64,000 bases of DNA, from assembly GCF_058153355.1 (NCBI RefSeq), contig NZ_CM177019.1. The stretch is one strand, 5' to 3'. The notes under the pieces were generated by a model. That model saw only the letters and a program-made list of their open reading frames with translations. It was not told the origin of the DNA and searched no databases. Shown here piece by piece: positions 2,595 to 53,083 of the stretch; within the stretch, counting starts at the first letter, position 1; each line of letters starts with the position of its first letter. Position numbers and translations under genes: made by a program.

Positions 2595-3743
2595 ATGGCT
2601 AACAGAATGATTCTGAACGAAACGGCATGGTTTGGTCGGGGAGCTGTTGGGGCCTTAACTGATGAGGTGAAACGCCGTGGTTATCAGAAGGCACTGATCG
2701 TCACCGATAAAACGCTGGTGCAATGCGGCGTGGTGGCGAAAGTGACCGATAAGATGGATGCTGCAGGGCTGGCATGGGCGATTTACGATGGTGTAGTGCC
2801 CAACCCGACAATTACTGTCGTCAAAGAAGGGCTTGGTGTATTCCAGAGTAGCGGTGCGGATTACCTGATCGCTATTGGTGGTGGTTCTCCACAGGACACG
2901 TGTAAAGCGATTGGCATCATCAGCAACAACCCGGAATTCGCCGATGTGCGCAGTCTGGAAGGGCTTTCCCCGACCAATAAACCCAGTGTACCGATTCTGG
3001 CAATCCCCACCACAGCAGGCACTGCGGCAGAAGTGACCATTAACTATGTGATTACTGACGAAGAAAAACGACGCAAGTTCGTTTGTGTTGATCCGCATGA
3101 TATCCCGCAGGTGGCATTTATTGACGCTGACATGATGGATGGTATGCCGCCTGCGCTGAAAGCCGCGACGGGTGTCGATGCGCTCACTCATGCTATTGAG
3201 GGGTATATTACTCGTGGTGCGTGGGCGCTAACCGATGCGCTGCACATTAAAGCGATTGAAATTATTGCTGGGGCGCTACGAGGATCGGTTGCTGGTGATA
3301 AGGATGCCGGAGAAGAAATGGCGCTCGGGCAGTATGTTGCGGGTATGGGCTTCTCGAATGTTGGGTTAGGGTTGGTGCATGGTATGGCGCATCCACTGGG
3401 CGCGTTTTATAACACGCCACACGGTGTTGCGAACGCCATCCTGTTACCGCATGTCATGCGTTATAACGCCGAATTTACTGGCGAGAAGTACCGCGATATT
3501 GCGCGTGTAATGGGCGTAAAAGTGGAAGGTATGAGCCTGGAAGAGGCGCGTAATGCCGCTGTTGAAGCGGTGTTTGCTCTCAACCGTGATGTCGGTATTC
3601 CGCCACATTTGCGTGATGTTGGGGTACGCAAGGAAGACATTCCGGCACTGGCGCAGGCGGCACTGGATGATGTTTGTACCGGTGGCAACCCGCGTGAAGC
3701 AACGCTTGAGGATATTGTAGCGCTTTACCATACCGCCTGGTAA
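2595..3743 (+). CDS. fucO: lactaldehyde reductase (L-1,2-propanediol oxidoreductase, Fe-ADH family)
   Basis: ORF 2592-3743; start placed at the second Met (MANRMILNE...) to match the 382-aa FucO; GGGS motif of iron-containing alcohol dehydrogenases; RBS AGGAG upstream. Confidence 0.95.
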   Translation: MANRMILNETAWFGRGAVGALTDEVKRRGYQKALIVTDKTLVQCGVVAKVTDKMDAAGLAWAIYDGVVPNPTITVVKEGLGVFQSSGADYLIAIGGGSPQDTCKAIGIISNNPEFADVRSLEGLSPTNKPSVPILAIPTTAGTAAEVTINYVITDEEKRRKFVCVDPHDIPQVAFIDADMMDGMPPALKAATGVDALTHAIEGYITRGAWALTDALHIKAIEIIAGALRGSVAGDKDAGEEMALGQYVAGMGFSNVGLGLVHGMAHPLGAFYNTPHGVANAILLPHVMRYNAEFTGEKYRDIARVMGVKVEGMSLEEARNAAVEAVFALNRDVGIPPHLRDVGVRKEDIPALAQAALDDVCTGGNPREATLEDIVALYHTAW

Positions 3744-3761
3744 ATGCGCTGATGTGATAAT

Positions 3762-3791
3762 GCCGGATACGACGTTTGCGGCGTATCCGGC
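3762..3791. terminator. REP-like hairpin between convergent fucO and xni
   Basis: 10-bp perfect inverted repeat GCCGGATACG / CGTATCCGGC with a 10-nt loop, resembling REP palindromes; sits between two convergent stop codons. Confidence 0.5.
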
Positions 3792-3797
3792 ACGCCG

Positions 3798-4664
<867 letters not shown>

Positions 4665-6032
4665 TTAATCGCAGGCAACGATCTTCATCGCCAGGCCACC
4701 ACGAGAGGTTTCGCGGTACTTGGCATTCATATCTTTACCTGTTTCGTACATGGTTTCGATAACTTTATCGAGGCAGACACGAGGTTCGCTGGTACGGCGT
4801 AGCGCCATACGTGCAGCGTTCACCGCTTTTACTGCCGCAATGGCGTTACGCTCAATGCACGGTACCTGAACTTGTCCAGCAACCGGGTCACAAGTCAGAC
4901 CGAGGTTGTGTTCCATGGCGATTTCCGCCGCGATGCACACCTGCGCCGGGCTTGCGCCTAACAGTTCTGCCAGACCAGCTGCCGCCATAGAGCACGCCAC
5001 GCCAACTTCACCCTGGCAACCCACTTCGGCACCAGAAATCGAGGCGTTCATCTTATAAAGAGAACCAATCGCGCTTGCTACCAGCAGGTAACGAGCCAGT
5101 GAGTTAGCGTTCACTTCGCGGATAAACTTGTCGTAGTACGCCAGCACTGCCGGGATAATCCCGCACGCACCGTTAGTCGGCGCAGTCACCACGCGACCGC
5201 CCGCAGCGTTCTCTTCGTTCACTGCCAGCGCAAACATGTTGATCCAGTCAACAACTGCCATCGGATCAGTGGTGGTTTTATCCTGGCTAACCAGCATCCG
5301 GCGCAGTGCCGCAGCGCGGCGTGGAACGCGCAGTTTGCCTGGCAACACGCCTTCGGTGGCAATACCGCGCTCAATACCGCCACGCATTACTTCCCAGACG
5401 TTCGCCAGGTGCTGTTCCAGTTCTTCTTTGCTGTGCAGCGCCAGCTCGTTTTTCATCATCAGACCAGAGAGTGACAGCCCGGTCTCCTGACAATGTTTTT
5501 GAAGATCGGCAGCGGAACTGTACGGATAAGGAACTTCAACCGGTGCGCTATCCTGCTGGCCAAAATGTTCTTCATCAACGATAAAGCCACCGCCGATAGA
5601 GTAGTAAGTCTGGCTGTAAACGACTTTATCGCCCGCCAGCGCGGTAATGCGCATGCCGTTTTCATGCAGAGAAAGGTTATCGGCATGGAAGTTCATGCAC
5701 TGATCAACCGGGAACTCCACTTCGTGCTGACCGTTTGCCAACATCAGGCGACCATGAGTATTCACATCCTGAATAAAACCAGGGATGGAATCGATATCCA
5801 CGGTATCCGGCAGGTTACCCGCCAGACCCATAATTATGGCGATATCTGTGTGGTGGCCTTTACCGGTCAGAGAGAGCGAGCCGTACACGTCAACCACCAC
5901 GCGGGTCACGTCTTTAAGCAGGTTACGGGCAATCAGATCGTCGGTAAATTGCTTACCCGCTTTCATTGGTCCAACGGTATGAGAACTGGAAGGGCCAATG
6001 CCGATTTTGAAAATATCGAATACGCTAATCAT
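4665..6032 (-). CDS. sdaB: L-serine dehydratase 2
   Basis: 455-aa ORF recognised as SdaB (Fe-S L-serine deaminase). Confidence 0.95.
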   Translation of the reverse strand: MISVFDIFKIGIGPSSSHTVGPMKAGKQFTDDLIARNLLKDVTRVVVDVYGSLSLTGKGHHTDIAIIMGLAGNLPDTVDIDSIPGFIQDVNTHGRLMLANGQHEVEFPVDQCMNFHADNLSLHENGMRITALAGDKVVYSQTYYSIGGGFIVDEEHFGQQDSAPVEVPYPYSSAADLQKHCQETGLSLSGLMMKNELALHSKEELEQHLANVWEVMRGGIERGIATEGVLPGKLRVPRRAAALRRMLVSQDKTTTDPMAVVDWINMFALAVNEENAAGGRVVTAPTNGACGIIPAVLAYYDKFIREVNANSLARYLLVASAIGSLYKMNASISGAEVGCQGEVGVACSMAAAGLAELLGASPAQVCIAAEIAMEHNLGLTCDPVAGQVQVPCIERNAIAAVKAVNAARMALRRTSEPRVCLDKVIETMYETGKDMNAKYRETSRGGLAMKIVACD

Positions 6033-6089
6033 AGGAAATACATCGCGTTAAAACGGAGGAAGCGCCGCCCGAAAGCGGCGCGAAAGGAC

Positions 6090-7379
6090 TTAGCTGAACA
6101 GAGAGTAGAAGATTGCGGAGATTGCAATCAGACCCATCACGACAACGAATACGTTGCTGATGTGACCGCTGTACTTACGCATTGCCGGTACTTTCTGGAT
6201 TGCGTACATCGGCATCAGGAACAGGATCATCGCGATGATTGGGCCGCCCAGGGTTTCAATCATACCCAGGATGCTCGGGTTCAGGGTGGCAACAATCCAG
6301 GTCGTTACCAGCATGAACAGCGCAGTGATACGGTTCAGCTTGTTGATTTCGATAGACTTACCTTTACCACGCAGAGATTTAATCACCATACCGTTGAAGC
6401 CTTCACGTGCACCCAGGTAGTGGCCGAGGAAGGATTTGGTGATAGCGATAATCGCGATAATCGGAGCCATCCACGCGATGATCGGCGCGTTAAAGTGGTT
6501 AGCCAGGTAAGACAGAATAGAGATGTTCTGCTCTTTAGCCGCAGCCAGGTCTGCCGGAGTCAGGCTCAGTACGCAGCTGAAGACGAAGAACATTACGGTC
6601 AGCACCATCATGATGTGTGCGAATGCCAGGATCTTCGAGCATTTCTGTTCTGCCATATCGCCGTACTCTTCACGCTTCGCAACGGCGAAAGAAGAGATGA
6701 TCGGAGAGTGGTTGAACGAGAACACCATGACCGGAATCGCCAGCCACAGGGTCATCCACAGACCGTTGCCGGTTGCCGATGCAGTGTCCAGAGACAGCGT
6801 TTCCAGTGCTGCGCCGTTCCACTGAGGGATCAGGTACAGAGCCAGCAGCATCAGTACACCAACAAACGGGAATACCAGAATACTCATCGCCTTCACGATC
6901 ATCTGCTCACCGAAGCGAACAATGGTCATCATACCCACAATCAGGATCAGAGACAGAATCGCACGCGGCGGCGGCGTCATACCCAGCTGGTGAGACATGA
7001 AGCTTTCAACCGTGTTGGTGATTGCCACACTGTAAACCAGCAGGATCGGGTAGATAGCAAAGAAGTAGAGCAGGGTAATCAGTTTACCTGCACCAATACC
7101 AAAGTGTTCTTCTACAACCTCGGTGATGTCTTCGCCTGGGTTTTTACCAGACAGTACGAAGCGAGTCAGGCCGCGGTGAGCAAAAAACGTCATCGGGAAC
7201 GCAAGGATAGCCATGATGATCAGCGGGATCATACCGCCAACACCGGCGTTGATTGGCAGGAACAGCACGCCCGCGCCGATTGCCGTGCCGTAAAGGCCCA
7301 GCATCCACATGGTGTCTGTCTTGCGCCATGCACTACGTGAGTCTTTCGACACAATCGTGCTGGTTTGAGTCGTTTCCAT
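6090..7379 (-). CDS. sdaC: serine:H+ symporter
   Basis: ORF 6090-7382 (MMETTQT...); 429-aa polytopic transporter recognised as SdaC, upstream of sdaB on the same strand. Confidence 0.93.
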
Positions 7380-7935
7380 CAATTTCTCCTGGAGGAATGC
7401 AAATAATTCAGCTTTTAGCCAGTTCAGCCCGGGAAGGTGCCTGACCGTAAAAATGAAATCTGTCTATCGGCGATGGCTTAATCATTTTCCGCCGTAATAA
7501 TTTGAGGGCGGAAAGATACACACAAGTTATGTATCTATCAGTGATCTTGATCTCAAATACAATAATCTACTTGGAAGATAGATAATCTCAACGCTTTACT
7601 CTGTAAATCAAAAGTAAAAGAGAATTTAAGGGCAATATTTGCCCATTAAACGACATCTGACCTCTTCCGGGGCGCGCAATATATGTAGGTTGAGCTGAAA
7701 AAATCAATACTTTTAGTGAATAATGTGGATAATTTATTTTTCATAGCGATAAAATGTGGTTTGTGAAAACAGGGAAACGTTTGCGTTGCAATATAAATTG
7801 TATGACATATTAACTGTGATGATATTTATCGCGTGAGGATGGTAAGAAACATTTATATAACAAATGAAATGAATTGATGAGTAAGTAACCAAAAACGAGA
7901 AAACCCGGCAACAAACGTCACCGGGGAAGGGGAGA

Positions 7936-9300
7936 TTACGTGCAGATTTCGTAGCAAGGGATGTAGGCTGAGCCTGGCAACTTCATACGATGCTGGGCAA
8001 CAAAACCCTGTAGCAGGTCGTCCATACGACGCATAATCTCTTTATCGCCGTTGATTTTGTAAGGACCAAACTCTTCAATGGCGCGAATACCGACTTCTTT
8101 TACGTTACCCGCCACAATACCGGAGAACGCACGACGCAGATCAGCGGCCAAAACTTCTACTGGCTGATCCGGATACAGTTTCAGATTAGCCATGTTCTCG
8201 TGAGACGGCTCAAACGGCATTTGCAGATCGGGCGCAATGCGCATTGACCAGTTAAAGCTGTAGGCATCGCCCGTATCGCGACGGTTTTCTTTCACCAGCG
8301 GCATCGATTTTTTCATCTGACGAGCGACTTCAGCGGCGTCATCAATGATGATGCGATAATGGCGTCGCGCGTTTTCTCCCAGCGTATGCACGACAAACTC
8401 GTCCAGTACGCGGAAGTAGTCTGCGCTCTCTTTCGGGCCGGTGAGGATCAATGGTAAAACCTGATCTTTGTTGGCCGGGTTCATTAAAATTCCCAGCAAA
8501 TACAGCAACTCTTCTGCCGTACCCACACCGCCAGGGAAGATAATGATACCGTGAGCGATACGGACAAACGCTTCCAGACGTTTTTCGATATCTGGCATGA
8601 TGATCAATTCGTTGACCAGCGGGTTAGGCGGTTCAGCGGCGATAATCGACGGCTCTGTCATACCAATAAAACGACTGTCTTTGTAACGCTGCTGTGCGTG
8701 TCCGACCGCAGCACCTTTCATCGGCGCTTCCATCGCTCCCGGACCACAGCCGGTGCAGATATTCAGCTCACGCAGGCCCAGCTGATTCCCGACGCGACGG
8801 GCATACAAATACTCGTTTTCGTTAATTGAGTGCCCGCCCCAGCAGACCACCATATTTGGCGCTTCACCGACATGCAGTGCGCGAGCGTTACGCAAGATGG
8901 AAAAGACCAGGTTAGTGATGTGGACGGAGTTGTCGAGATTCAGGTTGGGAAAACGAACGGTGTTATGGATTTGCCCGTAAACGAAGAGAATGTCACGCAG
9001 AACCGCGAACAAGTTGGCCTGCAAAGCGCGGATAATACGCCCATCGACAAAAGCTTCTTCCGGGGGATTAATCAGTTCCAGCTTTACGCCGCGTTCACGG
9101 CGCAGGACGTTAATATCGAAATTTTCAAAACGAGACAGCAATTCTTTGCTGTTATCGGTCAAACTACCGGAGTTCAGTACGGCAAGTGAACAGTTGCGAA
9201 ACAGTTGATAGAGGTCGCTGCTGGCGGTGCGTTTAAGCATATCCACTTCCAGCTGCGACAACATATCCATGGAGCCAAGCGGGCTAATATGTGTAATCAA
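7936..9300 (-). CDS. ppnN: nucleotide 5'-monophosphate nucleosidase (LOG family)
   Basis: 454-aa ORF recognised as YgdH/PpnN; PGGxGTxxE LOG-family motif present ([10 protein letters not shown]). Confidence 0.9.
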
Positions 9301-28167: not shown

Positions 28168-28181
28168 CAGCCTTCGGGCTG
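28168..28181. repeat. IS4 target-site duplication, left copy
   Basis: CAGCCTTCGGGCTG immediately left of the IS4 left IR; identical copy at 29609-29622. Exact TSD length (12-14 bp) is ambiguous because the target is itself palindromic. Confidence 0.8.
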
Positions 28182-29608
28182 TAATGCCGATCAGTTAAGG
28201 ATCAGTTGACCGATCCAGTGGCTGTGTAAGAATCCGGAAACGCTCACTTGTTTCCGGATTTTTTTATGCACATTGGACAGGCTCTTGATCTGGTATCCCG
28301 TTACGATTCTCTGCGTAACCCACTGACTTCTCTGGGGGATTACCTCGACCCCGAACTCATCTCTCGTTGCCTTGCCGAATCAGGTACTGTAACGCTACGC
28401 AAGCGCCGTCTTCCCCTCGAAATGATGGTCTGGTGTATTGTTGGCATGGCGCTTGAGCGTAAAGAACCTCTTCACCAGATTGTGAATCGCCTGGACATCA
28501 TGCTGCCGGGCAATCGCCCCTTCGTTGCCCCCAGTGCCGTTATTCAGGCCCGCCAGCGCCTGGGAAGTGAGGCTGTCCGCCGCGTGTTCACGAAAACAGC
28601 GCAGCTCTGGCATAACGCCACGCCGCATCCGCACTGGTGCGGCCTGACCCTGCTGGCCATCGATGGTGTGTTCTGGCGCACACCGGATACACCAGAGAAC
28701 GATGCAGCCTTCCCCCGCCAGACACATGCCGGGAACCCGGCGCTCTACCCGCAGGTCAAAATGGTCTGCCAGATGGAACTGACCAGCCATCTGCTGACGG
28801 CTGCAGCCTTCGGCACGATGAAGAACAGCGAAAATGAGCTTGCTGAGCAACTTATAGAACAAACCGGCGATAACACTCTGACGTTAATGGATAAAGGTTA
28901 TTACTCACTGGGACTGTTAAATGCCTGGAGCCTGGCGGGAGAACACCGCCACTGGATGATACCTCTCAGAAAGGGAGCGCAATATGAAGAGATCAGAAAA
29001 CTGGGTAAAGGCGATCATCTGGTGAAGCTGAAAACCAGCCCGCAGGCACGAAAAAAGTGGCCGGGACTGGGAAATGAAGTGACAGCCCGCCTGCTGACCG
29101 TGACGCGCAAAGGAAAAGTCTGCCATCTGCTGACGTCGATGACGGACGCCATGCGCTTCCCCGGAGGAGAAATGGCGGATCTGTACAGTCATCGCTGGGA
29201 AATCGAACTGGGATACAGGGAGATAAAACAGACGATGCAACTGAGCAGGCTGACGCTGAGAAGTAAAAAGCCGGAGCTTGTGGAGCAAGAGCTGTGGGGT
29301 GTCTTACTGGCTTATAATCTGGTGAGATATCAGATGATTAAAATGGCGGAACATCTGAAAGGTTACTGGCCGAATCAACTGAGTTTCTCAGAATCATGCG
29401 GAATGGTGATGAGAATGCTGATGACATTGCAGGGCGCTTCACCGGGACGTATACCGGAGCTGATGCGCGATCTTGCAAGTATGGGACAACTTGTGAAATT
29501 ACCGACAAGAAGGGAAAGGGCCTTCCCGAGAGTGGTAAAGGAGAGGCCCTGGAAATACCCCACAGCCCCGAAAAAGAGCCAGTCAGTTGCTTAACTGACT
29601 GGCATTAC
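28182..29608 (+). mobile_element. IS4 insertion sequence, complete
   Basis: About 1427 bp, bounded by imperfect 18-bp terminal inverted repeats (TAATGCCGATCAGTTAAG at left; reverse complement of the right end is TAATGCCAGTCAGTTAAG) and carrying a single transposase ORF. Confidence 0.9.
28266..29594 (+). CDS. insG: IS4 transposase
   Basis: ORF 28248-29594 trimmed to [16 protein letters not shown]...; 442-aa DDE transposase recognised as IS4 InsG. Confidence 0.9.
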
Positions 29609-29622
29609 AGCCTTCGGGCTGG
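29609..29622. repeat. IS4 target-site duplication, right copy
   Basis: CAGCCTTCGGGCTG immediately right of the IS4 right IR; together with the flanks it reconstitutes an AAAAATGCCAGCC-TTCG-GGCTGGCATTTTT bidirectional terminator hairpin. Confidence 0.8.
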
Positions 29623-29639: not shown

Positions 29640-30545
29640 TTACCAGCGACCGGAAGCACCGCCACCGCCAGAAGAACCGCCACCTCCGCTAAATCCGCCG
29701 CCACTTGAGCCGCCACCGGAAGAGGATGAAGAAGAACCTTTTCTTGAAGCTCTTTCTTTACCGAGCGTCTTGTATTTGGCTCGTAGCTTTTTATTAACGA
29801 TAAGCCAAAAGATAAGCAGCGCTACGATCGCAAAAGGCGTTAACATACCGCAGGCAACGATTAAATTCGTCCATGGTCCTGGCTCGGCAACATAGAGGAA
29901 TACCATCCCGTAAATTGCGGCAGTGAGAGTTATCCAGGGTAGATTCGACGGATCGGTAAAAACAACAAAATATGAAAGCACTGCCAGCAATATAAGTACA
30001 GCAAGCGAAAATGGGATAGGGGGATTGATACTGTAATAATTCCCCCTGCCTTCCGGTAATTCACCATTCATCAGAAGTGCGCCGATATTTTCGCTTGCCA
30101 GTGTTAACCCCCCCATCAGGTCATCACTTTTGAAAGCAGGGATTAATATGTCACGGATAATCTTTGCCGCTTGCAGGTCGGTAACCACCCCTTCCAGCCC
30201 ATAGCCGACTTCTATACGAACAGCATGATCTTCCCAGGCAACCAGAAGTAAAATGCCATCGTTTCGCTGCTTATCTCCCAGTTTCCAGCTATCAAAAACG
30301 CGTGTTGCATATTGTTCAATAGAATCGTCTCCGGTGGATGGCACTATTAATACGGCGACCTGTGCCCGTGTTTTTTGTGTAATATCCTGCAGCTGTTGTG
30401 TCAGTGATTGTTGTTCAGACGTGCTTAAGGTACCAGTAATATCGGTCACCTGTTGGCGCAGCTCCGGCACAGCAATTTGCTGGGCAAGCACAGGAAGGCA
30501 CCATAAAGTGAGTAGAAAAAGGATTATACGCATAACGATCACCAA
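29640..30545 (-). CDS. TPM-domain membrane protein (YgcG-like), paralogue 1
   Basis: 301-aa ORF: signal peptide (MRIILFLLTLWCLPVLAQQ), TPM-type domain (EQYATRVFDSWKLGDK...GILLLVAWEDHAVRIEVGYGLEG), C-terminal TM helices, Gly/Ser-rich tail ending GGGGASGRW. Real start probably the Met at about 30533. Confidence 0.85.
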   Translation of the reverse strand: MVIVMRIILFLLTLWCLPVLAQQIAVPELRQQVTDITGTLSTSEQQSLTQQLQDITQKTRAQVAVLIVPSTGDDSIEQYATRVFDSWKLGDKQRNDGILLLVAWEDHAVRIEVGYGLEGVVTDLQAAKIIRDILIPAFKSDDLMGGLTLASENIGALLMNGELPEGRGNYYSINPPIPFSLAVLILLAVLSYFVVFTDPSNLPWITLTAAIYGMVFLYVAEPGPWTNLIVACGMLTPFAIVALLIFWLIVNKKLRAKYKTLGKERASRKGSSSSSSGGGSSGGGFSGGGGSSGGGGASGRW

Positions 30546-31687
30546 CGGCCGGATGAACTGCCGCCTCCTGAAGAACCGCCGCCACCGCGGAAAGAATTTT
30601 TCGACGAAGAGCGAGAATGAGCATTACGATTCCCCGTTTTCCTGTTGCTTTTATGTCCTGATCCCAGTTTAAGATTGCCAGTAAATTTGGCCACAATGAT
30701 CAGCAGAACGATGCCTGCAATGGTTATTGGGCCGATAAAATGATCAATTAGCCCAATAATTGTTGAGATGAATGCTATATCTTTATTACTGGCGAACACC
30801 AGGCACCATCCCACAACAATTATCAGCAGCACGACAAACAATGAGTTTCGTTCGGATTGAGAAAACTGCTGAGTCGTCTTTTGTTTTTTCACTTTAGCGT
30901 TTTTATTTTGGGGGGCCAGCATCATAGGAAATGCGCGGCATATATTAAAAACTACCGCGAGACGCTGCCAGCAGATTGCTGCGAAAAATAAACTAAAACA
31001 AACGACCGATACCCGCCGAATGATGACATCGTCCTGAAAGGAGAAAAACCAGACCATAGGAGTAATCATCGATATCATCCATATGCCAGGCCCGGGACGG
31101 CTGGTAAATCGCCAGAGGACAACGATGGCAACGATCATCAGTAATGTCCAGGCAAGACATGGCAGCGAGCGTTGCGGATTAGCAAACAGATGATTGGCTA
31201 AAGCATCCAAAGGGCTAAGGTTCGCTTTGATATGGGTAAACTGTGCGATGCTTTCAATTCCCTGCGTTAACCCGGAGAAGAGATTATTTTTTTTGAATTC
31301 CGGTTGCATATGGTAATGAACAATTTGCGCAGCTTGTTCCGGTGGCAGCATCTCTTCCAGTCCATGCCCAATCTTCATTGACGCCAGCCCTTCCGGCCAA
31401 ACGACGAGAATTAAGATACCTTCGCCGTACCGCTTCTCTCCAACAGGTTTCCAGTGATATATCCCGTAGCTTTGCGAGGCTGCAAGTTTAATGTCTTTAC
31501 CCCCAGTGGTCGGCGTTACCAACACGGCCACCTGAAAGTGGTTTTGCTGCTCGAGAGTCTGTAATTGTTGATTTAAAGCAGTTTGTTCTTCTGTCGTTAA
31601 TGTCCCGGTTAAGTCAGTTACTGAAGGCAATTGTTCAGCGAATGCCTGGAAACCACATAGCATCAGAAGTAAGAGAAAAATACGCAT
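30539..31687 (-). CDS. TPM-domain membrane protein, paralogue 2 (extended polytopic membrane insert)
   Basis: 382-aa ORF: signal peptide, TPM-like N-domain (GILILVVWPEGLASMKIGHGLEE), about 4 hydrophobic segments, basic linker, tail GGGGSSGGGSSSGRW; overlaps paralogue 1 by 7 nt. Confidence 0.8.
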   Translation of the reverse strand: MRIFLLLLMLCGFQAFAEQLPSVTDLTGTLTTEEQTALNQQLQTLEQQNHFQVAVLVTPTTGGKDIKLAASQSYGIYHWKPVGEKRYGEGILILVVWPEGLASMKIGHGLEEMLPPEQAAQIVHYHMQPEFKKNNLFSGLTQGIESIAQFTHIKANLSPLDALANHLFANPQRSLPCLAWTLLMIVAIVVLWRFTSRPGPGIWMISMITPMVWFFSFQDDVIIRRVSVVCFSLFFAAICWQRLAVVFNICRAFPMMLAPQNKNAKVKKQKTTQQFSQSERNSLFVVLLIIVVGWCLVFASNKDIAFISTIIGLIDHFIGPITIAGIVLLIIVAKFTGNLKLGSGHKSNRKTGNRNAHSRSSSKNSFRGGGGSSGGGSSSGRW

Positions 31688-31701
31688 TTCAATTCCTTTT
31701 G

Positions 31702-32640
31702 TTACCAGCGCCCGGAGGCGCCACCGCCGCCAGATGAACCGCCGCCGCCGCTGAAATTATCATTGTCAAAAGAGGATGAAGAGGAAGATGACGACGATGA
31801 TGAAGAACGCCTGGAGGCCGAGTTACTTCTTTCGTAATGTGACGGTCGGTTGGCACTGCGCATCGAATCCCGAACCTTTTTGCCGAAGGGGGTAAAAGCG
31901 ATGGCGACAGCCAGGAACGGTGTGGCGAAGCAGAGTAATGTTGCGAGTACTCCCCAGCTTCCGCTGAAACCTGCTATAGGTAAAACAAAGGCCAGTACAA
32001 TAGCTGTGAAGCAAATTAGTCCCAGCGTTTTGACATATCCTCTGGCGGAAATAAAGGTCAGTACTATTGCCCAGACTAACAAAGCCCACCAACCGCTAAA
32101 GGGCAAAGGGTGATCGGTCGGTGTTATCGCTTCTAAATTATTCCCCGTCAGACGATTATCAATATCGCTTATTCCCTTTTGCAAGCCGCCAGCAAGGTCG
32201 CCATTTTTAAATGCCGGAATAATACTGTTGCGAATAATTTTCCCGGACTGCGCATCCGTAATAACGCCTTCCAGTCCGTAACCGATTTCAATACGCACGG
32301 TATGATCCTGCCAGGCGACTAACAGTAGAACGCCATCATCGCGGTCTTTATCACCCGGTTTCCAGCTATCGAATACCCGCGTAGCGTACTGCTCGATGGT
32401 TTCATCGCCCGTTGTTTCAACCACTAACACGACCAGTTGTGCGTGGCTTTTTTGCATCAGCTCTTTAATCTGATTGGTCAACGTATTTACTTCATCGTTC
32501 GTCAATTTGCCGGTTAAGTCATTCACATACCTGGGTGATTCAGGTACTGGAATTTGTATGGCAAACACAGATGAACAAAAGAAAGCCATAAGGAAGATAA
32601 AATTTCGCACAGGACTTCCTCGCTTAATGAGCATTAGCAT
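31702..32640 (-). CDS. TPM-domain membrane protein, paralogue 3
   Basis: 312-aa ORF: signal peptide, TPM domain (EQYATRVFDSWKPGDKDRDDGVLLLVAWQDHTVRIEIGYGLEG), TM helices, poly-Ser tract and tail GGGGSSGGGGASGRW; start overlaps the lemA stop by 17 nt. Confidence 0.85.
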   Translation of the reverse strand: MLMLIKRGSPVRNFIFLMAFFCSSVFAIQIPVPESPRYVNDLTGKLTNDEVNTLTNQIKELMQKSHAQLVVLVVETTGDETIEQYATRVFDSWKPGDKDRDDGVLLLVAWQDHTVRIEIGYGLEGVITDAQSGKIIRNSIIPAFKNGDLAGGLQKGISDIDNRLTGNNLEAITPTDHPLPFSGWWALLVWAIVLTFISARGYVKTLGLICFTAIVLAFVLPIAGFSGSWGVLATLLCFATPFLAVAIAFTPFGKKVRDSMRSANRPSHYERSNSASRRSSSSSSSSSSSSFDNDNFSGGGGSSGGGGASGRW

Positions 32641-33226
32641 TCTGGCTAAAATCTATTGTTGGGGTTTTACTCACAGCGGCGACATCATCCGGCAAATAAT
32701 TTTTCTTCGGTGTGTAATCCATGACTTTTGCGGTTAACACTGCGGGGAATTTGCGGATAGTGACATTATATTGTTCGATGGCTTTAATATATCTTCCTCG
32801 CGCAACGGCAATTCGATTTTCACTTCCTTCGAGCTGTACCATCAAATTTTGATAGAGTTCCTGGGCCTTTAGCTCAGGGTAACGTTCACTAATTATCGTT
32901 AACTGACCGAGAGTGCGAGACACCTGCGCCTGAGCTTGTTGCCAGGTTTGTAATTTTTGTTCATCTCCCGGAGTTTGCTGAAGAGCACTACTGGCGCGAT
33001 TAGCCTGACTACGTGCCAATGTTACGGCTTCCAGTACCTCTTGTTCATGGCTGGAATAACCTTTAATACTGGCGACAAGATTAGGAATAAGATCGGCGCG
33101 ACGTTGATATTGATTTAATACCTCAGACCAGGAAGCGTTAACCTGCTCATCATAGGTTTGAATATCGTTATATCCACAGCCTGATAAATTGAAAATAAAT
33201 ATAATTACGATGAATATTCTGAGCAT
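32624..33226 (-). CDS. LemA-family lipoprotein
   Basis: 200-aa ORF with lipoprotein signal (lipobox LSGC) and LemA-type sequence (RRADLIPNLVASIKGYSSHEQEVLEAVTLARS...); first gene of the four-gene minus-strand cluster. Confidence 0.85.
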   Translation of the reverse strand: MLRIFIVIIFIFNLSGCGYNDIQTYDEQVNASWSEVLNQYQRRADLIPNLVASIKGYSSHEQEVLEAVTLARSQANRASSALQQTPGDEQKLQTWQQAQAQVSRTLGQLTIISERYPELKAQELYQNLMVQLEGSENRIAVARGRYIKAIEQYNVTIRKFPAVLTAKVMDYTPKKNYLPDDVAAVSKTPTIDFSQNANAH

Positions 33227-33398
33227 GGTTAAATTCCTTTTAATTAATTTCTTAAAACATAATACGCCACTTCATTTTATTCTTTATGATCTAATCCACT
33301 TTTTGCCTTAAACCTGCCTGTAACAGAATGTTAATAAGACATGATTGTTGTGGCAGGATCTGCAATAATTAACAATTATCCACTTCACAGAGAATGCT

Positions 33399-34070: not shown

Positions 34071-34353
34071 CAGGTAATGTGAGTAGAGGTTGTGACGATT
34101 AAGCCTCTACTCTTACATCAATCTGTAAATGCCCCATTTTCTCCTCTCTTTGGTCCGACTCCGCAATTTCGTATATTTTTCAATAGTGTTAATGTTTTGT
34201 CCAAGTAAAAATTACCAGACATTCGGAGGTTTTTAACTAACATTTATAGTGGGTAAATTGGTGGGATACGCTTAACCTTAAAAAATCAATATAAACAATA
34301 GGTTATGATTGGTGTTTGTCTTATCGGATGAACTAATTTAAATGGAGTACTAA

Positions 34354-34617
34354 ATGGCTACTTTAATGGAAAAAGATTCTCTCCTGAATGGCGTAAGTCA
34401 AAATATTGCATTTTTATCAAATGTATCAGAAATGATTTACAAGTCCCAGAATGAAGAATTACAAAAGGAGATATATGAATTGGTGAGTTATAGAGACTAT
34501 TTATATTCAACAGGCCATGAACTCGTTGATTTCAAGGAAGGAGTATTGCGATTTCAGCAAGTTAGAAAAAAATACATGCAGGATCTAAAAGCGCTAGGTT
34601 ATCCCGCAACCAATTGA
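34354..34617 (+). CDS. hypothetical small protein (87 aa) in an AT-rich islet
   Basis: ORF with GGAG Shine-Dalgarno 7 nt upstream; surrounding 34071-34797 is far more AT-rich than the flanks; no family recognised. Confidence 0.45.
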   Translation: MATLMEKDSLLNGVSQNIAFLSNVSEMIYKSQNEELQKEIYELVSYRDYLYSTGHELVDFKEGVLRFQQVRKKYMQDLKALGYPATN

Positions 34618-34797
34618 TAAATATGTCTTTATATTAATTTTAGGATGTGGATAACCTGCTGAAATTTATATTAAAAATGAAATAAAAATATTAAATTCAT
34701 ATCATGCTTGCGTTTTGTTCTCGATAACGCGTAATTTTGTTGAATGCTTTCTCCTGTGAATGCAAAACCAGGCAGTTTCCCGCCCGGCCTTCCTCAC

Positions 34798-51259: not shown

Positions 51260-52911
51260 GTGACTTTCTTTGATTTCTGGGGAAAAACCCGACGTGGCGA
51301 GAAAGAGGGTGGCGACGATTATCACCTTCTTTGCTGGCATTCGCTGGATGTAGCCGCGATAGGCTATTTAATGGTCAAAAACAACTGTTTCGGGCTGGCT
51401 GACTATTTTCGTCAATTAGGTTTCGCTGACACGGATCAGGCAGCACAATTTTTCGCCTGGTTGTTGTGCTGGCACGATACTGGAAAATTTGCCCGCTCAT
51501 TTCAGCAACTTTACCTGCACCCACAACTCAAGGTTCCGGAAGGCGCAAGAAAGAATTACGAAAAGATCTCTCATTCAACGCTGGGTTACTGGTTGTGGCA
51601 TCATTATTTAATTGAATGTGAAGAGTTGCTTCCTTCATCTTCACTCTCTTTGCGCAAACTTAAACGGGTAATAGATATGTGGATGCCCGTGACGACCGGG
51701 CATCATGGTCGGCCTCCTGACCGTATCGATGAACTGGACAACTTTCTACCTGAAGACAAAGCTGCCGCACGAGATTTTCTCCTTGAAATCAAGGTACTGT
51801 TTCCGCTCATCGAGATCCCTACATTCTGGGATGATGACGAGGGCGTTGAACTTATAAAACATCTTTCCTGGTATATATCTGCAACCGTCGTACTCGCAGA
51901 CTGGACGGGATCGTCAACGCGGTTTTTTCCACGCGTCGCACATGTAATGGATATTAAAGATTACTGGCAGAATGCTTTAGCTCAGGCTCAAAACGCATTA
52001 ACCGTCTTTCCTCCAAAAGCAGAAACCGCACCTTTCACTGGAATTAACACGCTGTTTCCTTTTATTGAGAACCCAACACCGTTACAGCAAAAGGTGCTGG
52101 ATCTGGATATCAGCCAGCCAGGACCGCAGTTGTTTATTCTGGAAGATGTGACTGGCGCAGGTAAAACAGAAGCGGCGCTTATCTTGGCGCACAGGTTGAT
52201 GTCTGCGGGGAAAGCACAGGGTTTGTTTTTTGGCCTGCCAACAATGGCAACGGCCAATGCCATGTACGATAGGCTGGTAAAAACCTAGCTTGCTTTCTAT
52301 TCGCCACAATCCCGCCCCAGCCTGGTGCTGGCACACAGCGCTCGTTCGCTAATGGATCGCTTTAACGCATCGCTGTGGTCTGGTGATTTTGTGGGGTCAG
52401 AAGAACCGGATGAACAAGCGTTCAGTCAGGGATGTGCGGCCTGGTTTGCTGACAGTAACAAGAAGGCGTTGCTGGCTGAAATTGGCGTCGGCACGCTGGA
52501 TCAGGCGATGATGGCGGTGATGCCGTTCAAACATAATAATCTGCGGCTTCTGGGGCTGAGTAACAAAATCCTGCTAGCCGATGAGATCCACGCCTGTGAC
52601 GCTTATATGTCGTGCATTCTTGAAGGGCTGATCGAGCGGCAGGCGCGTGGCGGAAACAGCGTTATTTTGCTTTCTGCTACGTTGTCTCAACAGCAGCGTG
52701 ACAAACTCGTCGCCGCCTTTGCGCGTGGTGCAGAGGGCCAGCAAGAAGCTCCGTTGCTGGAAAAAGATGATTATCCCTGGCTGACGCATGTCACGAAATC
52801 CGATGTGCATTCGCACCGGGTAGCGACGCGCAAAGACGTTGAGCGCAGCGTGAGTGTGGGTTGGCTTCATAGCGAACAAGAGTGTATTGCGCGTATCGAA
52901 TCGGCGGTAAG
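51260..52911 (+). pseudogene. cas3: cas3 remnant (type I-E HD nuclease/helicase), in-frame TAG at 52286-52288 and 3' truncated at about codon 550
   Basis: Track ORFs 51260-52288 and 52325-52936 are in the same frame, separated by one amber codon; HD motif region (LLCWHSLDVAAIGY...HDTGKF) and Walker A (DVTGAGKTEA) present; reading frame runs directly into CRISPR repeat 1. Confidence 0.85.
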
Positions 52912-53062
52912 GTGTTCCCCGCGCCAGCGGGGATAAACCGTCGACAATGGATAAGTTGACTTCAGGTCTGGGGAGTTCCCCGCGCTAGCGGGAATAAACC
53001 GTGCAGTACGCCTGATGACAAACCAAGCATCGGGAGTTCCCCCGCGTCAGCGGGGGAACTCC
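52912..53062 (+). CRISPR. orphan type I-E CRISPR mini-array (3 repeats, 2 spacers)
   Basis: Repeat 1 52912-52940 GTGTTCCCCGCGCCAGCGGGGATAAACCG; spacer 52941-52972; repeat 2 52973-53001 (2 mismatches); spacer 53002-53033; degenerate terminal repeat from 53034. Spacers are 32 bp; repeat matches the E. coli I-E consensus. Confidence 0.9.
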
Positions 53063-53083
53063 CAGCTCCCATTTTCAAACGCC

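Follow-up and report, generated by a model that had tools for sequence, protein, structure and literature searches.

A lemA-TPM gene cluster at the queE-eno locus of Escherichia coli: a probable Escherichia-specific expansion of a widespread Proteobacterial gene pair

A cluster of four genes is found between queE and eno at positions 29640–33226, minus strand, of the window, a 64,000 nt stretch of contig NZ_CM177019.1 (RefSeq assembly GCF_058153355.1). It consists of lemA, a lipoprotein gene, and three genes for paralogous TPM-domain membrane proteins, here termed TPM1, TPM2 and TPM3. Genome comparisons suggest that it is an envelope module, chromosomal and inherited vertically, which represents an Escherichia-specific expansion of a LemA/long-TPM pair widespread in Proteobacteria. 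The comparisons also point clearly to loss of the operon in K-12 rather than gain in the window strain. The components, their pairing and the exact four-gene arrangement are already known and are correctly named in RefSeq, including in O157:H7. New here are the triple long-TPM form, a Klebsiella relative of TPM2 that has no TPM domain, the polarity of the K-12 loss, the origin of YqcG and a RefSeq mis-annotation of TPM1. By itself the locus is no new kind of system. It is an entry point to LemA and TPM, two very widespread bacterial families that are essentially without assigned function.

Identity and anatomy of the four proteins

The identity and anatomy of the four proteins are near certain. 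LemA (200 aa, positions 32624–33226, minus strand) matches the Pfam LemA model PF04011 over model positions 1–149 of 149 (3.1e-48) and the LemA of T. maritima (2ETD, 7e-33). It has the same plan as 2ETD, an N-terminal membrane anchor followed by an antiparallel helical bundle, which is a predicted periplasmic four-helix bundle. The signal peptide carries a lipobox, LSG-C17, with Gly at +2, and 20 homologues with identities as low as 50% all have this Cys. The initial annotation, made from the sequence alone, had proposed both the LemA family and the LSGC lipobox; the Pfam hidden Markov model (HMM) agrees with the former and the sequence with the latter. The lipobox with its invariant Cys therefore marks LemA as an exported, lipid-anchored periplasmic lipoprotein. 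Under the sorting rule for E. coli lipoproteins, LemA is predicted to be anchored at the inner face of the outer membrane. A comparison with the MamQ equivalog (NCBIfam NF040966) gives 90.6 bits, which is below the 250-bit cut-off. LemA also matches phrog_1383 ("virion structural protein") at 2e-22, and a tblastn search finds LemA-like genes in 38 phage records (Enterococcus 23, Listeria 4), all at less than 50% identity.

All three paralogues match the Pfam TPM model (PF04536), as had been proposed, each over model positions 1–124 of 125 (TPM1, 5.7e-40; TPM2, 1.4e-22; TPM3, 1.1e-38). TPM1 matches the solved TPM domains 7TBR (2.6e-21), 5ANP (8e-19) and 2KW7, with values of about 1e-19 to 1e-21. 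With the Psb32 model (NCBIfam NF047379), TPM1 and TPM3 reach 32.7 bits against a cut-off of 160, and TPM2 gives no match. The NCBIfam scan, run with a release that has no YgcG model, shows only these sub-threshold MamQ and Psb32 matches.

Each paralogue consists of a signal peptide, the TPM domain, transmembrane (TM) segments and a Gly-rich tail that ends in SGRW, and the earlier description of signal peptides, hydrophobic anchors and SGRW tails holds for all three. The signal peptide is cleavable, and the TPM domain therefore faces the periplasm. Hydropathy shows three TM helices in TPM1 and three in TPM3, and there are five in TPM2 (hydropathy and an AlphaFold2 model), in keeping with the larger polytopic insert noted before in the middle paralogue. 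A basic stretch follows the last TM helix and precedes the Gly/Ser tail. By the positive-inside rule basic stretches stay on the cytoplasmic side of the membrane, so the tail, which is predicted to be disordered, should be in the cytoplasm.

The tail is conserved in E. coli, Klebsiella, Brenneria and Pseudomonas while the membrane helices vary, and the terminal Trp is invariant. The last 17 residues, FSGGGGSSGGGGASGRW, are identical in TPM1, TPM3 (where the Gly/Ser tail ends in ASGRW) and K-12 YgcG, and the same 17 are present in a Brenneria protein. The tail of TPM2 is ...GGGGSSGGGSSSGRW, that in Pseudomonas is FRGGGGSSGGGGASGRW, and that in Klebsiella ends in SSGRW. Among 97 more distant TPM homologues, which span many phyla, 86 end in the motif [FYW]xGGGGxxGGGG[AS]SGxW-COOH, a proportion that is possibly inflated, as the list was built on shared 5-residue words and may favour tailed proteins. 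A match of the TPM3 anchor and tail to the Pfam "YxzE-like putative bacteriocin" family (3.7e-4) was rejected as an effect of composition, i.e., a TM segment plus Gly-rich sequence. The TPM1 tail includes a run of 12 Ser codons (positions 31771–31806) that varies in length by whole codons, with five fewer in O157 and one fewer in strain D5.

TPM2 (382 aa, positions 30539–31687, minus strand) has a degenerate TPM domain. At the conserved residues of the family (VxD, IEQY, DDG, RIEVGYGLEG..D), TPM1 and TPM3 differ at none. In TPM2, 12 of the 31 conserved columns of the domain deviate from the consensus, with changes that include IEQY to IKLA, DDG to GEG, RIEVGYGLEG to SMKIGHGLEE and D to P. Every conserved Asp and Glu of the family is retained in TPM1 and TPM3, and many are lost in TPM2. 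TPM2 is read here as a structural, probably non-catalytic paralogue. The AlphaFold2 model places its helices at residues 171–196, 200–216, 221–256, 277–299 and 304–335, where helices 3 and 4 are joined by a Lys-rich loop on the cytoplasmic side. The overall predicted local distance difference test (pLDDT) value is 53.8, with about 50 for the membrane part, and the TPM domain shows a beta-alpha-beta arrangement with values of 70–86 in parts. The model was used for helix counting alone because these values are too low for a fold search. Full-length relatives of TPM2 are found in Escherichia only. An exhaustive phmmer search with the membrane module gave 12 matches among 1.84 billion representatives, which are Escherichia fragments and two proteins, 38–41% identical, of the TPM-less Klebsiella type. 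The five-helix anchor thus appears restricted to Escherichia and Klebsiella.

Organization of the cluster

The four minus-strand open reading frames (ORFs) reported before are reproduced with exactly the same coordinates: in their longest forms they span 32624–33226 (200 aa), 31702–32640 (312 aa), 30539–31687 (382 aa) and 29640–30545 (301 aa). The overlaps of 7–17 nt that had been described between them arise only when each ORF begins at its first possible start codon. The lemA/TPM1 junction reads TAA-GCG-AGGAAG-TCCT-GTG, where AGGAAG is a Shine-Dalgarno sequence and the GTG at 32610 is the likely start of TPM1. This gives a TPM1 gene at 31702–32610 (302 aa), a canonical long protein of the YgcG type, and a gap of 13 nt after the lemA stop codon; the RefSeq annotation of O157 has the same geometry. 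TPM1 and TPM2 are separated by a 14-nt gap and do not overlap. TPM3, a canonical long TPM protein of 297–300 aa (29640–30542), most likely starts either at ATG 30533 (MRIILF..., as in every other family member), which leaves a 5-nt gap, or at GTG 30542, which produces a 4-nt overlap.

The packing is tight and each gene is preceded by its own Shine-Dalgarno sequence, so that the operon-like arrangement stands. A terminator scan shows no minus-strand terminator-like site inside the cluster, and a single transcript for all four genes is therefore plausible. The divergent intergenic region between queE and lemA (33227–33398) is the presumed site of the operon promoter and leader.

Conservation of synteny and of the LemA-TPM pair

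In E. albertii the gene order ygcE-queE-LemA-TPM1-TPM2-TPM3-eno-pyrG is that of the window, with an identity of 87.6% for the cluster and 93–97% for the flanks. K. quasipneumoniae has queE-LemA-TPM(296 aa)-eno, and the single Klebsiella TPM protein at this locus is 47% identical to TPM3 over 264 aa. K. spallanzanii has queE-LemA, a TPM1-like protein (294 aa), a TPM2-like protein without a TPM domain that keeps the ASGRW tail, and a 22-repeat array of clustered regularly interspaced short palindromic repeats (CRISPR) directly before eno (positions 3537–7468 of its locus stretch). The shared synteny in E. albertii and Klebsiella indicates that LemA plus TPM is ancestral at this site and that the K-12 state is derived.

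A degenerate-pattern scan with one genome per species, a sample and not a census, gave at least 80 LemA loci in alpha-, beta- and gamma-Proteobacteria. There are 62 evaluable loci, i.e., with at least 2 kb of downstream sequence, and a TPM gene was counted if it starts within 400 nt on the same strand. Among the matches listed, a TPM gene is directly downstream of lemA in 54 of the 62, and the gap is 13 nt in the window; the statement in the initial annotation that LemA and TPM form a conserved dyad is well founded. The following forms likewise refer to the matches listed. The commonest (28/62) is LemA followed by a long tailed TPM and a short TPM of about 165 aa; LemA with a long tailed TPM alone accounts for 15/62; three long TPM genes occur only in E. 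albertii (1/62). The short proteins (e.g., positions 7504–8001 of one locus stretch) are encoded about 0.7–1.1 kb downstream of lemA. They have no signal peptide or TM segment and are therefore presumably cytoplasmic. Loci in Escherichia and Klebsiella are without the short TPM gene. Clustering of all neighbouring ORFs at 80 LemA loci revealed no recurrent partner other than TPM. The second-largest neighbour cluster was rejected as a partner family, since its members are ORFs read antisense to the Gly-rich coding region. Among the matches listed, a set of three long TPM genes that includes a degenerate five-helix paralogue appears to be restricted to Escherichia.

Distribution and allelic variation in E. 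coli

A survey of 5426 complete E. coli genomes shows lemA in 1454 and TPM2 in 1104, always as a single chromosomal copy, and there are no plasmid copies of either gene in this set. A single match spans at least 80% of the whole block in 970 genomes. Three haplotypes are found. Haplotype A, the K-12 type, has yqcG and ygcG, and is present in roughly three quarters of the genomes, with yqcG frameshifted in some. Haplotype B, in strain D5, consists of LemA, TPM1 and a 120-aa membrane ORF. Haplotype C, in O157:H7 and the window, has LemA and the three TPM genes. The 120-aa ORF of D5 (positions 3603–3965 of its locus stretch) has two hydrophobic segments, stands in place of TPM2 and TPM3 and has no NCBIfam match. 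The lemA gene is absent from about 73% of the complete genomes, which keep only yqcG and a divergent ygcG. The locus is thus not rare, being present in about 20% of complete E. coli, including O157:H7, and RefSeq already names the LemA and TPM proteins.

The window flanks are 98.2–99.6% identical to E. coli. The cluster itself reaches only 93% identity with O157, and 98.1% with the best-matching genome. Synonymous divergence (dS) from O157 is 0.15–0.27 in the cluster and 0.07–0.09 in eno and queE. The cluster alleles appear to be older than the backbone, or imported relative to it. The ratio of nonsynonymous to synonymous divergence (dN/dS) against O157 is 0.09 for LemA, 0.17 for TPM1, 0.31 for TPM2 and 0.14 for TPM3, and the most relaxed region is the membrane part and tail of TPM2 (0.58). 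The values of 0.09–0.31 indicate purifying selection on all four genes, which are therefore functional genes. Taken with Pfam E-values of 1e-22 to 3e-48, they also show that these are not chance ORFs.

All four genes are intact in the window. TPM1 of O157:H7 is cut at codon 225 by a TTA to TGA change, which leaves a 224-aa protein (positions 5326–6000 of its locus stretch), and this exact allele is present in about 300 complete genomes. RefSeq labels TPM1 of two other strains "partial, missing C-terminus" (positions 6332–7003 and 4235–4906 of the locus stretches), where the ORFs are full length; the reference used is apparently the truncated 224-aa protein. The mis-annotation of TPM1 is systematic.

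The K-12 state and the origin of yqcG

The K-12 eno-queE interval had been described as holding ygcG alone, and it has two genes, yqcG and ygcG. The window does have extra DNA relative to K-12, as was said; the amount is about 2.6 kb when the 1426-bp IS4 is discounted, and not 2.3 kb. This DNA is not an insertion. The E. albertii and Klebsiella synteny and the yqcG stub described below show K-12 to be the reduced form.

The window and K-12 agree at 100% of the 92 nt adjacent to queE, a stretch that is nearly invariant across all four haplotypes, with one difference, in D5. The next 163 nt, which include all of yqcG and extend to about codon 27 of lemA, show 65–74% identity with one 1-nt indel between K-12 and the window. 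Past this codon the identity drops to 41%. K-12 YqcG (46 aa, positions 3928–4068 of the K-12 locus stretch) aligns with the lemA leader and first ~27 codons (window 33150–33260). Residues 16–36 of YqcG, FTKIIFIFSVLVFNDNEYKITD, align to residues 5–26 of LemA, FIVIIFIFNLSGCGYNDIQTYD, such that the hydrophobic core of the signal peptide is kept and the lipobox Cys is gone. Because of this alignment and the loss of the Cys, YqcG is best interpreted as a stub left from the 5' end of lemA. Its RefSeq name is "cell envelope stress response protein".

Features flanking the cluster

An IS4 element of 1426 bp (28182–29607, plus strand) adjoins the operon and is not a part of it. Its transposase (28248–29594) matches the NCBIfam IS4 model at 9e-91. 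Homology to other E. coli genomes stops at 28181 and resumes exactly at 29608; the element is specific to the window strain and is absent from the closest matching genomes. The terminator-like-site scan shows a GC-rich hairpin, CAGCCTTCGGGCTG, at 29608–29621, between TPM3 and the former 3' end of eno. It probably serves as a common terminator for eno and TPM3, whose transcripts converge here. IS4 lies 41 bp past the eno stop codon and separates eno from this hairpin.

On the other side of the cluster, the queE-ygcE spacer (34071–34797) is AT-rich, with a GC content of about 0.31. It is matched in only 8 of the 5426 E. coli genomes, at 79% identity over 63% of its length. No CRISPR repeats were found in this spacer in the window; K-12, D5 and other strains have an array there. 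An 87-aa ORF in the spacer (34354–34617) matches the first 78 of 308 positions of phrog_25145 (8e-20) and therefore looks like a phage-related gene fragment. A three-repeat remnant of a type I-E-like CRISPR is found at 52911–53064, with the repeat GGTGTTCCCCGCGCCAGCGGGGATAAACCGT, a spacing of 61–62 nt and a degenerate third copy.

Possible function and regulation

No function has been assigned to a LemA-TPM operon in the searchable literature, as the initial annotation had stated. Within the LemA family, a process has been linked to MamQ alone (Raschdorf 2016, PMC4902198). There is no consensus function for TPM, and metal sites vary between TPM structures (December 2025 preprint, 10.1101/2024.10.28.620569). 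A comparative-genomics study of the phage shock protein (PSP) system favours a chaperone-like role of TPM in assembling membrane-linked complexes, and C. jejuni CcoZ supports an oxidase-associated role.

Several leads bear on regulation. In K-12, phosphorylated PhoP (PhoP-P) binds and shifts the 300 bp upstream of queE, and deletion of yqcG in an mgrB mutant raises queE expression (PMC4974570). A sigma-S chromatin immunoprecipitation-sequencing peak is located between queE and yqcG/ygcG ("ygcG small protein") in K-12 (PMC4447067). A Flavobacterium sppA mutant that suffers membrane stress shows induction of lemA and of a TPM gene (PMC13236525). The conserved part of the window queE/lemA spacer contains a PhoP-box-like sequence, TGTTACAGGCAGGTTTA, at 33309–33325, minus strand, with two mismatches. 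A sigma-70 promoter scan gave sites no more frequent than in shuffled sequence.

The reading favoured here, tentatively and at a little under an even chance, is that LemA and the TPM proteins form a periplasm-facing complex for envelope assembly or homeostasis under stationary-phase/PhoP control. The helical bundle of LemA and the periplasmic TPM domains would assemble into a hetero-oligomer located at the periplasm or spanning it, with TPM1 and TPM3 as canonical subunits and TPM2 as a degenerate subunit with a larger membrane anchor. The complex would help to scaffold, assemble or repair protein complexes of the envelope or membrane, as has been proposed for other TPM proteins, namely Psb32/TLP18.3 (photosystem II), CcoZ (cbb3 oxidase) and YdjH with PspA. 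The conserved cytoplasmic tails may link the complex to a partner in the cytoplasm or bring about its clustering. Expression would be driven from the queE-divergent region, where sigma-S and PhoP-P act in K-12, in stationary phase or under low Mg2+ or antimicrobial-peptide stress.

A number of observations weigh against this reading. The step to a function is drawn from analogy to distant TPM proteins, and no experiment connects a LemA/YgcG-type pair with envelope homeostasis. The evidence for regulation comes from K-12, where the operon is reduced, and PhoP-box-like sites show no excess in the window as a whole (15 against 14.9 expected). Weak in vitro activities have been reported for some TPM domains (Pellizza 2016, Cerutti 2017), phosphatase for BA42 and ATPase/ADPase for BA41, and an enzymatic role is possible since TPM1 and TPM3 keep all conserved acidic residues. 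The operon is dispensable in E. coli, because about 73% of complete genomes are without lemA; this loss, together with the nonsense allele in about 300 genomes, means that any role is conditional. The Escherichia module may also work differently from others in that the cytoplasmic short TPM is absent here.

The in vitro activities would fit a different function, in which the TPM domains of TPM1 and TPM3 would be metal-dependent phosphohydrolases with a phosphorylated substrate in the periplasm or bound to the membrane, with LemA as a regulator or adaptor and TPM2 as an inactive partner. The family name itself derives from phosphatase activity, BA41 aligns with TPM1 and ends in the same kind of Gly-rich tail (...GGGASGGW), and the pattern of acidic residues, complete in TPM1 and TPM3 and much reduced in TPM2, is consistent with it. 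However, this periplasmic phosphatase or nucleotidase is doubtful, as the metal sites differ between TPM structures in a family without a consensus function, the PSP study prefers a chaperone-like role, no substrate is known, and ATP is not expected in the periplasm. A decaying relic without current function in E. coli, heading to the K-12 state, is less probable still. The genomes that have lost lemA, the TPM1 nonsense allele, the relaxed membrane part and tail of TPM2 and the insertion of IS4 32 bp downstream are all in its favour, but the four ORFs are intact in the window, the whole-gene dN/dS values stay low over a dS of 0.15–0.27, and the arrangement predates the split of E. coli and E. 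albertii.

The most improbable of these alternatives, with only the slightest chance, is an anti-phage or abortive-infection membrane system kept polymorphic by phage selection, for which the locus had been named a candidate. The presence/absence variation with three haplotypes, a synonymous divergence 2–4x that of the flanking genes, the CRISPR arrays that adjoin the locus in E. coli relatives and K. spallanzanii, and the LemA-like genes of some phages (with the phrog_1383 match) are points in favour of such a system. But none of the four proteins matches a family in PADLOC-DB 2.0 (E<=0.1) or has a nuclease, NTPase, protease or sensor domain, and the phage LemA matches, below 50% identity, are mostly from phages of Gram-positive hosts. 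Nor does the locus have the properties of a genomic island or mobile cargo: it is single-copy at one syntenic chromosomal site with no plasmid match among the 5426 genomes, there is no mobility gene save the incidental IS4, and the same synteny in E. albertii and Klebsiella indicates vertical inheritance. Alpha-, beta- and gamma-Proteobacteria all have the pair, in the manner of a housekeeping module.

A more elaborate version of the envelope-complex reading is unlikely. It would be a trans-envelope machine of outer-membrane LemA, inner-membrane TPM proteins and cytoplasmic tails that relays or repairs envelope damage. The tail ...GGGGxxGGGGASGxW-COOH would be a new docking or clustering signal, in Escherichia a homo-oligomer would have become a hetero-oligomer in which two subunits are active and a third is a pseudo-TPM protein, and the stress-induced YqcG of K-12 would be a fossil lemA signal peptide whose expression still depends on the former stress promoter.

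Natural alleles of the module occur at this one site in E. coli: the full four-gene form, LemA with one TPM, and the K-12 stub. With such alleles in a tractable species, and with the sigma-S and PhoP leads, the function of the pair can be tested by allele swaps.

Comparison with known systems

MamQ has the LemA fold, an N-terminal membrane anchor and an extracytoplasmic (lumenal) helical domain, as does the window LemA. The latter differs in having a lipoprotein anchor rather than a TM helix, and there are no magnetosome genes nearby. The TPM factors Psb32/TLP18.3, CcoZ, MSMEG_4692 (respiratory complexes) and YdjH (B. subtilis pspA-ydjGHI) share with the window proteins a TM-anchored extracytoplasmic TPM domain on an energy-transducing membrane, and YdjH also has a low-complexity C-terminal segment. 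Unlike those systems, the window has no photosystem, oxidase or pspA genes adjacent, and no LemA is reported in the cited literature on Psb32, CcoZ, MSMEG_4692 and YdjH. The immediate neighbours are eno, pyrG, queE and ygcE, with no pspA or Band-7 gene at the locus that would provide a PSP-type context. BA41 of Bizionia argentinensis (PDB 5ANP) resembles TPM1 in the alignment and tail described above. BA41 and BA42 (PDB 5ANP, 4OA3) were studied only as isolated domains, for phosphatase or ATPase/ADPase activity in vitro.

The K-12 yqcG-ygcG pair occupies the same queE-eno slot, with identical queE-proximal promoter DNA and the identical 17-residue tail, and YgcG has the domain plan of TPM1 and TPM3. 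In contrast to the window, K-12 has no LemA, YgcG shares only 43–49% identity with TPM1 and TPM3, and in its membrane part it is like the Brenneria protein and unlike these two. The Proteobacterial module of LemA, long TPM (COG1512-like) and short TPM has its first two components in common with the window, in the same order and on the same strand, with the invariant lipobox Cys. In both, a TPM protein of ~290–330 aa follows directly after LemA and has a signal peptide, TM helices and the ...GGGGxxGGGG[AS]SGxW tail. The window differs from the commonest form of this module in that the short TPM is missing and two further long tailed paralogues are present, one of them degenerate with a five-helix anchor.

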